Part shown: positions 2,503-4,870 of the stretch, piece by piece
Layout: each line of letters starts with the position of its first letter
Numbering within the stretch: position 1 is the stretch's first letter
NCBI GenBank assembly: GCA_963674745.2
Contig: CAXXDV010000001.1
Coordinates: forward strand, 1,984,001-2,048,000
Source of the DNA: Desulfosudaceae bacterium
GTDB lineage: Bacteria > Desulfobacterota > Desulfobacteria > Desulfobacterales > Desulfosudaceae
Reading direction: 5' to 3'
Length of the DNA stretch: 64,000 nucleotides
Position numbers and translations under genes: made by a program
Notes under the pieces: generated by a model
Told to the model about the DNA's origin: nothing
Seen by the model: the letters and a program-made list of their open reading frames with translations, nothing else
Database searches by the model: none

Positions 2503-2702
2503 ACAGCAGCAAGGTGCCGTAATCGGTTGCCCGGAAGGCACAACCGATAACGGGTAAAAGGAAAGATGGTGAGATGCCATCGCATCCCAGCCGTTGCCGT
2601 GATCGGGGACGAGAACCGCACGAAGCCACTCTCAAGGCGAAAGCCCCGGGGGGAAGGCGCGGTTTAAGAATGATCCGTAAGCCGGAAAGCCTGCCTGGCT
2701 GT
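2503..2702 (+). promoter_or_regulatory. Cobalamin (B12) riboswitch
   Basis: Hallmark segments in order: AAGGTGCC, TAAAAGGAAAGATGGTGAGATGCCATCGC, TTGCCGTGA, GCCACT, GGGAAGGCG, and B12-box AGCCGGAAAGCCTGCC. Lies ~60 nt upstream of the AGGAGG RBS. Confidence 0.88.
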
Positions 2703-2762
2703 GAACAACAGGATTTTTGCTGGATAAAATTCTTCTGATGATTGTTTATCAGGAGGTGTTTT

Positions 2763-3902
2763 ATGACAGCAGGAATCAACAAGTCGTTCGGGTCCGTAAT
2801 TTCCCGCCTGGCCCGCCACCATCACCTTGAACGCCACGAAGCCGAACAGGCGTTTACCACCGTCCTCAGCAACGCCACCACGCCCATGCAGCAGGGCGCG
2901 TTCCTGGCCGCTCTGGCCACAAAGGGCGAGACCGAAGCCGAGATTGCCGGTGCCTGGGACGCCATCTATAATCTGGATACGGTAAAAATTGACCTGGGCT
3001 CAGACTGCTCTCTGGTGGAAAACAGCGGCACCGGCATGGACACCTTCAAGACTTTCAATATCAGCACCGCCGCCGCCATAGTAGCTGCCGCCGGCGGCAT
3101 AACAATGGCGAGGCATGGCGCCAGATCCATAACTTCCACCTGCGGCACGGTTGATATGGCCGAAGCCCTGGGGGTGGATGTGGAATGCCCGGCCGAGATC
3201 GTGGCGGACAGTATCAAGTCGGCAGGCATCGGTCTTTTTAACGGCATGAGCCCGACCGTTCATCCCCGCGCGCTGGCCCGGATTCTGCCGCAGATTCATT
3301 TCGGATCAATTCTCAACACGGCGGCTTCTCTGGCCAATCCGGTCAGGCCCACCGTTGGCCTGCGGGGGGTATATTCTAAAGACGTCATGCTGCCTGTCCT
3401 GCGGGTCATGAAGGCCATCGGATATAAGAAGGCCATCGTACTTCACGGCAAGGTGCGCGGTGTTGCCCCGGAGCAGGCCGGTATGGATGAGGCTTCCGTA
3501 TGCGGCCCCACCTATTGCGCCCGGCTATGCGAATCCGGTGAAATCGAGTCGTTTGTTATTCATCCTGAAGATCATGGCCTGGGCGCTGGGTTACCCCTAC
3601 AACTGGCGCCTGCGGGCGATATTGTCTTAGAGGCAAGACGCTTTGTTGACTTGATTCGCAACCGCGAGCACGGCATCAGAAAAGAAGCGGTTCTGCTTAA
3701 TGCCGCACTTGTGTTTTATGTCGCAGAAGCCGTGACAAGCATTCAGAGCGGCCTGGAGGCAGCAACCGTTATCCTGGAGAGCGGGCGGGCCTTTGACGCA
3801 CTGGGCGCCTGGGTAGCGGCCCAGAATCGCGATCCTGAAAAAGGGTTGCGGCGGCTGGAACAATGCGCGGCTTACAGCTCATCAAAAAGGGTGGCGTCAT
3901 GA
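2763..3902 (+). CDS. Anthranilate phosphoribosyltransferase-like protein (divergent TrpD paralog)
   Basis: SGTGMD-TFNISTAAA-RHGARSITSTCGTVD and GMDE motifs. ATG 2763 chosen after AGGAGG. No other trp genes nearby. Confidence 0.85.
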   Translation: MTAGINKSFGSVISRLARHHHLERHEAEQAFTTVLSNATTPMQQGAFLAALATKGETEAEIAGAWDAIYNLDTVKIDLGSDCSLVENSGTGMDTFKTFNISTAAAIVAAAGGITMARHGARSITSTCGTVDMAEALGVDVECPAEIVADSIKSAGIGLFNGMSPTVHPRALARILPQIHFGSILNTAASLANPVRPTVGLRGVYSKDVMLPVLRVMKAIGYKKAIVLHGKVRGVAPEQAGMDEASVCGPTYCARLCESGEIESFVIHPEDHGLGAGLPLQLAPAGDIVLEARRFVDLIRNREHGIRKEAVLLNAALVFYVAEAVTSIQSGLEAATVILESGRAFDALGAWVAAQNRDPEKGLRRLEQCAAYSSSKRVAS

Positions 3903-4870
3903 AACTGTTGTTGACCGGACAAAAACAACTTTCGGTTCAGCTGTCCGATGATTACGGGACCCCTCCCGAAGGAGAAGCCCTGCTCGGGGTACTGTGCTGC
4001 GGTGTCTGCAGGACCGACGCCAAGATGTGGGCGCAGGGGCACCGGGATCTTGTCCTGCCCCGGGTTCCCGGCCACGAAATGGTTGTGGCCGACGAACAGG
4101 GGCGGCGGTATGCGGTCTGGCCCGGTGATGCCTGCGGCAAATGCCGGTATTGCCGAAAAGGGCGTGAGCATCTCTGCCGTCAGATAAAGATCATCGGTTT
4201 TCACCGGGACGGCGGTTTTGCCGATCATGTCATCGTTCCGAAAACCAGCCTCATTCCGCTTCCTGATACCCTGGATACTGATGTTGCCTGCCTTGCCGAG
4301 CCGGCCGGTTGCGTTATGCATGCGCTTGATAAATGCGGACTGGGTAAGCAGGCGCACGTGCTGATTTACGGCGCCGGCACCATGGGCGTTCTGGCCGCAA
4401 TGGCCGCGCGGGTTGGCGGTGCCGAACCCATGATCGTTGAAAAGAACCCGCACAAGATGAATGCCGCCCGAATAATCCTCGCAGATGCAGGCATACCGTG
4501 CGTTCAAGAGGCGAACCAGATCGATTTTGACGTGGTCATCAATGCCTGTCCGGATCCCGATGCCTTTCGGCAGGGGTTGAAAATCCTGGCCAAAGGCGGA
4601 TGTTTTTGCTTTTTCAGCGGCCTGTCAGGCGGCGCCGTAACAGATGTTGATTTGATTAACCTGATTCATTACCGTGAAATCACCATCGTCGGATCTTACG
4701 GCCTGAATCGGGAAGACATGCAAAGGGCTTTGCCGTTCCTTTCAAAAAAGCAAGCAATTCTGAAGGCTTTGATCGATACGACAATCAAACCGGAAGAGGT
4801 GGCGGCCGTTATGGGGCAGGTCCTTTCGGGCAGCGGATTTAGAAAAATAATAAATTTTAGCAAAAGATGA
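3899..4870 (+). CDS. Zn-dependent MDR-family alcohol/threonine dehydrogenase-like protein
   Basis: CGVCRTD, GHE, structural Zn CxxCxxCx7C, EP, Rossmann GAGTMG. ATGA overlap with the upstream stop. Confidence 0.9.
   Translation: MKLLLTGQKQLSVQLSDDYGTPPEGEALLGVLCCGVCRTDAKMWAQGHRDLVLPRVPGHEMVVADEQGRRYAVWPGDACGKCRYCRKGREHLCRQIKIIGFHRDGGFADHVIVPKTSLIPLPDTLDTDVACLAEPAGCVMHALDKCGLGKQAHVLIYGAGTMGVLAAMAARVGGAEPMIVEKNPHKMNAARIILADAGIPCVQEANQIDFDVVINACPDPDAFRQGLKILAKGGCFCFFSGLSGGAVTDVDLINLIHYREITIVGSYGLNREDMQRALPFLSKKQAILKALIDTTIKPEEVAAVMGQVLSGSGFRKIINFSKR

Follow-up and report, generated by a model that had tools for sequence, protein, structure and literature searches.

The lower ligand of a cobamide decides which cobamide a microbe makes and to which of its neighbours that cobamide is of use. 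Only some of the natural lower ligands have known genes (BluB, the bza genes and CobT/ArsAB). The system described here is a two-gene unit from a Desulfosudaceae bacterium, in which a cobalamin riboswitch is followed by the genes for a paralog of the anthranilate phosphoribosyltransferase TrpD (the TrpD-like protein) and a zinc-dependent dehydrogenase of the medium-chain dehydrogenase/reductase (MDR) superfamily. The unit lies in a 64,000 nt stretch of contig CAXXDV010000001.1 (hereafter, the window), from a genome that is 99.96% complete.

Several described systems resemble parts of this unit. The bza operons, which represent the known anaerobic pathway, combine BzaF or BzaAB with CobT and BzaCDE; like the module considered here, they are riboswitch-controlled gene sets around CobT that serve the lower ligand. 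However, the module is without a ThiC-family radical-SAM enzyme, and its chemistry must differ because its enzymes are a phosphoribosyl pyrophosphate (PRPP) transferase and a zinc dehydrogenase. CobT/ArsAB (TIGR03160; archaeal type TIGR00303) is the enzyme that the module accompanies, and neither window protein is itself a CobT. TrpD (EC 2.4.2.18; TIGR01245; PDB, e.g., 9ucw, 1zyk and 3qr9) shares with the TrpD-like protein a two-domain fold, the GTGxD loop, and the NxST and DE motifs, but the window protein is encoded outside any trp operon, behind a B12 riboswitch, together with the MDR and (in relatives) CobT. L-threonine 3-dehydrogenase (Tdh) and the polyol dehydrogenases have the Zn-MDR fold, the zinc ligands and the Rossmann motif in common with the window MDR, whereas the latter scores far below every equivalog cut-off and belongs to a family defined by its linkage to the TrpD-like protein and CobT. 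Finally, BluB (the synthase that makes 5,6-dimethylbenzimidazole aerobically) likewise supplies a lower-ligand base. It has an unrelated flavin-destructase fold and needs O2, but its reaction sets a precedent, in chemical terms, for deriving a base from an N-linked pentose: the ribityl C1' becomes C2 of the benzimidazole, and the remainder leaves as erythrose 4-phosphate (PMC8123684).

We propose, with a probability of about 0.55, that the two-gene operon is switched off by cobamide and constitutes an undescribed accessory module of lower-ligand (nucleotide-loop) synthesis, working with CobT and supplying the base or a precursor of it. Put differently, the pair probably carries out an undescribed step in making the lower-ligand part of B12. 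A candidate cobamide module tied to the lower ligand was also the core of the original prediction, which was made from the sequence of the locus alone; the idea holds up on the riboswitch, on the presence of a separate trpD, and on the linkage to CobT. What is observed directly in this argument is the presence of the riboswitch, the families of the two proteins, the conservation of their linkage, and the CobT fusions.

The aptamer was detected with cmscan as a match to the full length of the Rfam cobalamin model (positions 1–189; E 3e-15; gathering score 31.5; Table 1), on the same strand as the gene pair and with its 3' end 51 nt ahead of the TrpD-like start codon. The original prediction had recognised this riboswitch, placing its start at 2503. 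Downstream of the aptamer lies an 11-pair stem, in which a pyrimidine-rich anti-Shine-Dalgarno arm pairs with the AGGAGG Shine-Dalgarno sequence (2751–2756), while the outer stem covers the ATG. The folded region 2660–2775 reaches –38.5 kcal/mol (z –4.54), and none of 200 shuffled sequences was equally stable. This layout is that of the usual translational OFF switch, through which cobamide would repress the operon. The ATG 6 nt past AGGAGG is the most likely start of the TrpD-like gene. As had been read from the sequence at the outset, the two genes overlap by ATGA: the ATG of the MDR gene (3899–3901) lies within the TGA stop of the TrpD-like gene (3900–3902), and the MDR gene is predicted to be translationally coupled to its neighbour via this overlap.

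Relatives of the locus were collected by a genome scan. The main set comprises the best 80 of 317 relatives' loci, from Desulfobacterales and allies, with proteins of 56–73% identity. Rfam models identified a riboswitch 5' of the ortholog in nine loci out of 11; with nine Rfam-confirmed copies as the source of an nhmmer profile, a riboswitch was then found in 70 of 81 loci (window counted). The loci beyond these 70 belong to one subclade; in a set of 11 loci that nhmmer mostly missed, Rfam gave one riboswitch. Since the order riboswitch, TrpD-like gene, MDR gene recurs in dozens of other genomes, the arrangement is beyond chance.

The TrpD-like protein carries the Pfam domains Glycos_trans_3N and Glycos_transf_3, and reaches 236.1 bits on the TIGR01245 trpD model (cut-off 199.05). 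A second trpD in the same genome, at C1:1322985-1323968, reaches 431.8 bits. The separate, canonical trpD that the original prediction had asked about is thus present, and the window protein is a paralog rather than the tryptophan-pathway copy. An alignment was constructed with MAFFT from the genome's own TrpD and 100 representatives drawn from a library of 1.84 billion proteins. In it, canonical TrpD shows the signature GTGGD, KHGN, F-APxxHPAMK, RKEL and GPLTNP, while the window clade shows GTGMD, RHG(A/S), FNGMSPxxHP, ILSQ and ASLANP; relative to canonical TrpD, the FNGMSPxxHP segment contains a two-residue insert followed by a two-residue deletion. GTGGD together with KHGN occurs in 76 of 107 aligned rows, in place of which the window clade has Met and Ala/Ser, respectively. 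The elements that handle PRPP and Mg are present in the window protein (GTGMD, FNIST and MDEAS, with the Lys of KHGN replaced by Arg), and none of 18 family members deviates at residues D93, N99, S101, T102, D242 and E243. In the anthranilate-site columns, the Asn of KHGN has become Ala120 and the Arg of PxR(K/R)EL has become Leu175. These are the replacements, and GTGxD, FNIST and DE the retained elements, that had earlier been picked out in a manual alignment (KHGN to RHGA, and loss of the Arg), and MAFFT recovers the same picture. We take the two anthranilate-site residues to be N138 and R193 in M. tuberculosis numbering; titles among the Foldseek matches in PDB list N138A and R193A/L variants.

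In a quick maximum-likelihood tree, the window protein falls into a 19-row clade (SH-aLRT 99) apart from the genome's canonical TrpD. Its AlphaFold2 model has a pLDDT (predicted local distance difference test) of 86.9, and the top Foldseek matches are all TrpD structures, with TM (template modelling) scores of 0.78–0.83. Together, the alignment and the model indicate that the window protein is an enzyme of TrpD fold that probably depends on PRPP and has a rebuilt acceptor site. The lost Asn and Arg suggest an acceptor other than anthranilate, which may be non-carboxylated, as the original prediction had it. A 787 amino acid (aa) protein in one ENA record (P0382) contains a TrpD-like part, with 51% identity over 83% of the query, plus an extra PF03415 domain according to a precomputed Pfam list.

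The second protein matches PF08240 (ADH_N; 58.2 bits) and PF00107 (ADH_zinc_N; 52.7 bits), both above their cut-offs. Its catalytic Cys/His/Glu, its Cys4 structural-zinc motif and its GxGxxG motif are kept across 69 aligned MDR family members. The best named models are those of L-threonine 3-dehydrogenase, at 110.7 and 111.5 bits against cut-offs of 458.35 (TIGR00692) and 380 (NF003808); other top models are idonate 5-dehydrogenase and galactitol-1-phosphate 5-dehydrogenase, and the PDB sequence neighbours include Tdh. The invariant basic residues R38, K42, R50 and R56 lie near the catalytic Cys, and would fit an anionic substrate.

The arrangement of the genes in the relatives connects the pair to CobT. 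Across the main set, an MDR ortholog lies 3' of the TrpD-like gene in 74 of 80 loci. Of the six misses, four are at a contig edge and leave no room for an MDR, while two are without an MDR despite room. In 51 loci the MDR and CobT are fused in one frame without a stop, in two CobT is adjacent, in 11 the MDR stands alone (that is, at least 1 kb of further sequence is present; the window has this layout), and 10 are too short to tell. Among the 64 informative loci, the fused layout thus accounts for 51/64 and the CobT-less layout for 11/64. The fused open reading frame (ORF) is ~700 aa long, with a full CobT domain making up the C-terminal half (PF02277, 417.7 bits; TIGR03160, 423 bits). One 615-aa ORF from the relatives (L158) resembles a fusion but is not one, being a TrpD-like frame that runs over the MDR gene in another frame; and a protein with TrpD-like and CobT parts (P0212) was not counted, being fragmentary, with a linker of low complexity, and perhaps a read-through caused by a frameshift.

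A small ORF of ~65–70 aa lies between the TrpD-like gene and the MDR~CobT gene in 59 of the 80 loci (e.g., L068:7137-7373). It has no match in Pfam or NCBIfam, and is possibly a fourth component of the module. The best of the chance-level tblastn matches to it in the window genome (E 0.009), which lies at 49462–49602 of the window inside a radical-SAM ORF, was rejected.

More distant family members show the same association in other gene orders. In distant bacteria (45–51% identity) the order is riboswitch, MDR, TrpD-like gene and, in some cases, CobT. Of 11 loci, 9 have the MDR next to the TrpD-like gene and 4 have CobT within the retrieved stretch, directly next to the pair in two. In one distant genome the pair lies between cbiJ/cbiE and cbiZ-btuB-btuF-btuC. 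Library representatives at 42–51% identity bear names from Methanothrix, Syntrophobacterales and Bacillota metagenome-assembled genomes. On Methanothrix-like metagenome contigs, the MDR gene is directly 5' of the TrpD-like gene in 47 of 49 loci with room for it, and in both of the two such loci that were annotated, a gene for an archaeal-type CobT (TIGR00303, 308–310 bits; cut-off 240) overlaps the MDR start. A single record (P0381) contains a 732-aa MDR~TrpD-like fusion. The neighbourhoods of orthologs, which the original prediction had named as a place to look for cobamide genes, therefore contain CobT in fused or adjacent form, both in close relatives and beyond them; the linkage of the module outlasts REARRANGEMENT and a change of domain of life. 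Linkage to two CobT families, three gene orders and fusions is hard to explain other than by a task shared with CobT, and we take the place of the pair at the CobT step of cobamide assembly as firm.

The distant genome with cbi and btu genes around the pair contains an operon-like run (L104:5218-9900) of CbiJ, a CbiE-type methylase, an unknown 110-aa ORF, the MDR, the TrpD-like protein, CbiZ, parts of a TonB-dependent receptor, BtuF and BtuC. The receptor appears as two ORFs, one for the plug and one for the barrel, perhaps through a frameshift.

An even sample of 401 genomes from the phylum was also searched for the module (threshold E <= 1e-90). Of the further module-bearing genomes in this sample, 12/12 have CobT and 11/12 have CbiD, and BzaF-like genes are present in 5 of 12. 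In two of them (G154 and G098) the fused CobT is the only CobT, CbiD is present, and there is no second ThiC paralog; here, judging from gene content, the module would serve the main route rather than a side route. Among the genomes of close relatives, the fused-type genomes first tested all have two CobTs and a BzaF-like gene (4/4), the ThiC-paralog gene lying next to the stand-alone CobT. The unfused-type genomes all have one CobT and no BzaF-like gene (5/5).

The window genome contains six cobalamin riboswitches. Four lie ahead of genes for uptake (those for a BtuB-like receptor, for BtuFCD with a BtuF~CbiZ fusion, and of the ExbBD type), the fifth precedes a monocistronic, single-copy cobT on another contig than the window, and the sixth is that of the window locus. 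CobU, CobS, CobD and CbiB are clustered. CbiD is absent, and tblastn gave no match to a relative's CbiD or CbiC. As CobT, CobS, CobU, CobD, CbiB and CbiZ are kept in the absence of CbiD and CbiC, the organism looks like a corrinoid salvager and remodeler, which would have to obtain a lower ligand in some way. The genome has no second ThiC-family gene; the sole copy scores 638 bits, like the thiamine enzyme, and so a BzaF-like copy is lacking. No BluB scored above the cut-off in any of five genomes tested (best score 51.9 bits; cut-off 150). The BtuF~CbiZ fusion is a 676-aa protein (L085:15527-17557, on contig C3 of the window genome, G000) with a periplasmic-binding part and a CbiZ-like adenosylcobinamide hydrolase part, encoded in a riboswitch-controlled btuFCD operon.

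These observations can be combined into a sequence of steps, of which we infer the substrates, the order and the lower-ligand base as product. The TrpD-like enzyme would join PRPP to some amine or N-heterocycle that is not anthranilate, and a beta-N-phosphoribosyl intermediate would result. The MDR would then perform an NAD(P)-dependent redox step on this phosphorylated intermediate or on a ring-opened form of it. The product, or a base derived from it, would be handed to CobT for conversion into the alpha-ribotide, which CobS would join to the corrinoid. In the window genome, imported corrinoids would be rebuilt with a lower-ligand part that the module provides.

Several points weigh against this proposal. 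The chief one concerns stereochemistry and logistics: TrpD inverts alpha-PRPP to beta-N-ribotides while cobamides need the alpha form, so that the product of the TrpD-like enzyme could not serve as the final nucleotide. Moreover, the module holds no enzyme that would free a base from the ribose. Given a beta-ribotide and nothing that obviously releases the base, the product would need to incorporate the carbons of the sugar, or else these would need to be removed by cleavage, as happens in tryptophan or BluB chemistry. The comparative data are also uneven. The module is rare (13 of the 401 phylum genomes), and one subclade of 11 loci (L026, L029, L032, L035, L037, L039, L042, L046, L056, L062 and L065) is without a recognisable riboswitch. 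Several carriers also have BzaF-like genes, and hence the module is not a simple BzaF replacement; equally, the absence of BzaF and BluB is weak support, because purine-using cobamide producers need no base synthesis. Finally, the physical CobT link of the window pair is borrowed from relatives. Its MDR is not fused to CobT, an rRNA operon following the MDR end at 4870; tblastn gives only chance-level matches to the small conserved ORF, which is absent from the window genome; and the window genome's CobT groups outside the fused clade, with the stand-alone CobTs that relatives carry beside BzaF-like genes, which means that this lineage keeps the pair without a dedicated CobT.

In some loci of the subclade without a riboswitch, a shikimate-kinase-family gene lies directly 5' of the TrpD-like gene (L032:5046-5576, L065:100-684 and L109:7229-7798). 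These genes score 150–161 bits, too little for the best shikimate kinase model (cut-off 204 bits), and match a Desulfovibrio-type homoserine kinase model at 81–85 bits. The upstream gene could be either an aroK with a housekeeping role or a kinase that the module has recruited.

A more specific version of base supply, which we regard as unlikely, is that the TrpD-like protein and the MDR form an oxygen- and radical-SAM-independent route to a benzimidazole-type ligand such as 5-methylbenzimidazole or benzimidazole. To our knowledge, no biosynthetic genes have been assigned to 5-methylbenzimidazole or to unsubstituted benzimidazole. In such a route, PRPP and an aromatic or heteroaromatic amine would yield an N-phosphoribosylamine that cyclises; oxidation by the MDR would follow, the ribose C1' would be taken into the ring (as happens with BluB), the remainder of the sugar would leave, and CobT would activate the base. 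The lead is a taxonomic coincidence: the module occurs in Desulfobacteraceae and Methanothrix, groups reported to make 5-methylbenzimidazolyl-cobamide, a compound with which a 1988 paper by Krautler, Kohler and Stupperich is said, from its title, to be connected. The 120 listed of 1644 matches to the ortholog of an uncultured Desulfobacterium, mostly nameless, do not include Desulfobacterium autotrophicum, a result that is neutral on the link to 5-methylbenzimidazole.

The stereochemical difficulty would vanish if the TrpD-like enzyme made not a base but a beta-ribotide donor for CobT, either nicotinate mononucleotide (NaMN) re-made from the nicotinate set free by CobT or a dedicated donor, with the MDR conditioning the carrier. 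The net reaction would then be PRPP plus base to alpha-ribotide via two inversions (alpha-PRPP to beta-donor to alpha-ribotide), which fits general knowledge of TrpD and CobT chemistry, and tight linkage to and fusion with CobT would also be expected. We nevertheless consider donor supply quite improbable, and prefer base supply, on three counts. NaMN supply and nicotinate recycling are already covered, with NadC in 5/5 module-bearing genomes tested and a NAPRTase-family gene in 4/5 (the window genome among them). A dehydrogenase would be superfluous for a plain nicotinate phosphoribosyltransferase, yet no partner of the TrpD-like protein is more constant than the MDR. Lastly, where a genome has two CobTs, one of them is kept as a dedicated copy in fusion with the MDR, which speaks for a distinct base more than for a shared donor. 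We judge it similarly doubtful that the pair tailors or anomerises a ribotide, the TrpD-like enzyme placing a ready-made base on PRPP (in beta configuration) and the MDR oxidising a ribose hydroxyl so that C1' epimerises, or modifying the nucleotide in some other way; the outcome would be an alpha-ribotide made in parallel to CobT, or a modified ribotide. The position of the MDR in the polyol/threonine-dehydrogenase-like branch, whose members act on secondary alcohols of sugars and sugar phosphates, is in keeping with such a role, as are the conserved basic residues near its active site and the one recorded fusion of MDR and TrpD-like protein. CobT would then be redundant, however, yet all 12 carriers tested keep it and most relatives fuse it to the MDR; we also know of no precedent for such a ribotide anomerase.

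Two further explanations detach one or both proteins from the lower ligand. Cobalamin riboswitches do control B12-independent isoenzymes, metE and nrdD being among the examples cited (PMC8620254). The operon might accordingly be a B12-independent bypass (like metE or nrdDG), or a spare tryptophan gene behind a riboswitch, the more so as PGAP-type models would name the protein TrpD and public records do. This is very improbable in our estimation: repeated fusion or adjacency to two CobT types, and placement within a cbi/btu operon, are unexpected for a bypass, and a spare tryptophan gene is at odds with a canonical trpD elsewhere and with replaced anthranilate-site residues. We give hardly any credence to the idea, raised as an alternative in the original prediction, that the MDR is a threonine or aminopropanol dehydrogenase feeding the aminopropanol arm. 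It draws on the best named MDR models being L-threonine 3-dehydrogenases (110.7–111.5 bits) and on Tdh being among the PDB neighbours, but these scores are far under the Tdh cut-offs (380–458), the standard CobD threonine-phosphate decarboxylase route lies beside CbiB in the genome, and the PRPP enzyme would be left with no role. Nor is the fusion partner a linker enzyme such as CbiB or CobD; it is CobT.

A NAPRTase-family gene adjoins cbiD in two relatives (G001 C1:7012568-7015265 and G003 C34:26765-29629), where it possibly provides a dedicated NaMN supply for CobT.

All public records that we encountered name the TrpD-like protein 'anthranilate phosphoribosyltransferase', and genome-based predictions of tryptophan and cobamide synthesis consequently mis-read it. 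The full-text literature (with subscription journals outside) yielded no paper that describes cobamide synthesis as involving an MDR or a TrpD-like enzyme. The two are mentioned together only in a figure legend, which lists trpD and a dehydrogenase, without comment, in Chlorobium regions that also hold cobalamin genes (PMC8620254). The occurrence of a conserved, B12-regulated and CobT-fused enzyme pair among sulfate reducers, syntrophs and acetoclastic methanogens speaks for an as yet unassigned enzymatic step in the lower-ligand branch, and the signature residues and fusion partners make it a directly testable system. By record titles, cultured carriers are Desulfocicer vacuolatum DSM 3385, Desulfospira joergensenii DSM 10085, Desulfobacula phenolica and Desulfamplus magnetovallimortis.

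The features of the window locus are collected in Table 1. On the upstream side, the unit is flanked by the 3' portion of a gene for RNase Y and by tyrS; on the downstream side, a complete rRNA operon (5136–10449: 16S, two tRNAs at 6834–6908 and 6962–7034, 23S and 5S) begins 266 nt past the MDR stop. With these flanks, the unit consists of two genes. The rRNA promoter region occupies the spot where relatives have the CobT domain.

Table 1. Features of the riboswitch-controlled gene pair (window coordinates).
Feature	Position	Strand	Basis and remarks
Promoter-like site	2309..2338	+	TTGACA, 18 nt spacer, TATTTT; consensus scan, 10/12 matches; consensus match only
Cobalamin riboswitch aptamer (RF00174)	2498..2712	+	Rfam, 70.1 bits
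Putative expression platform hairpin	2714..2775	+	Core 2731–2756; outer stem over ATG
TrpD-family paralog, 379 aa	2763..3902	+	Pfam and TIGR01245
Zn-dependent MDR dehydrogenase, 323 aa	3899..4870	+	Pfam ADH_N and ADH_zinc_N

Between the promoter-like site and the aptamer, positions 2372–2422 contain five 12-nt direct repeats (AACCACATAACC-like) with a spacing of 8–15 nt. These repeats might be a protein-binding array or a leader element.

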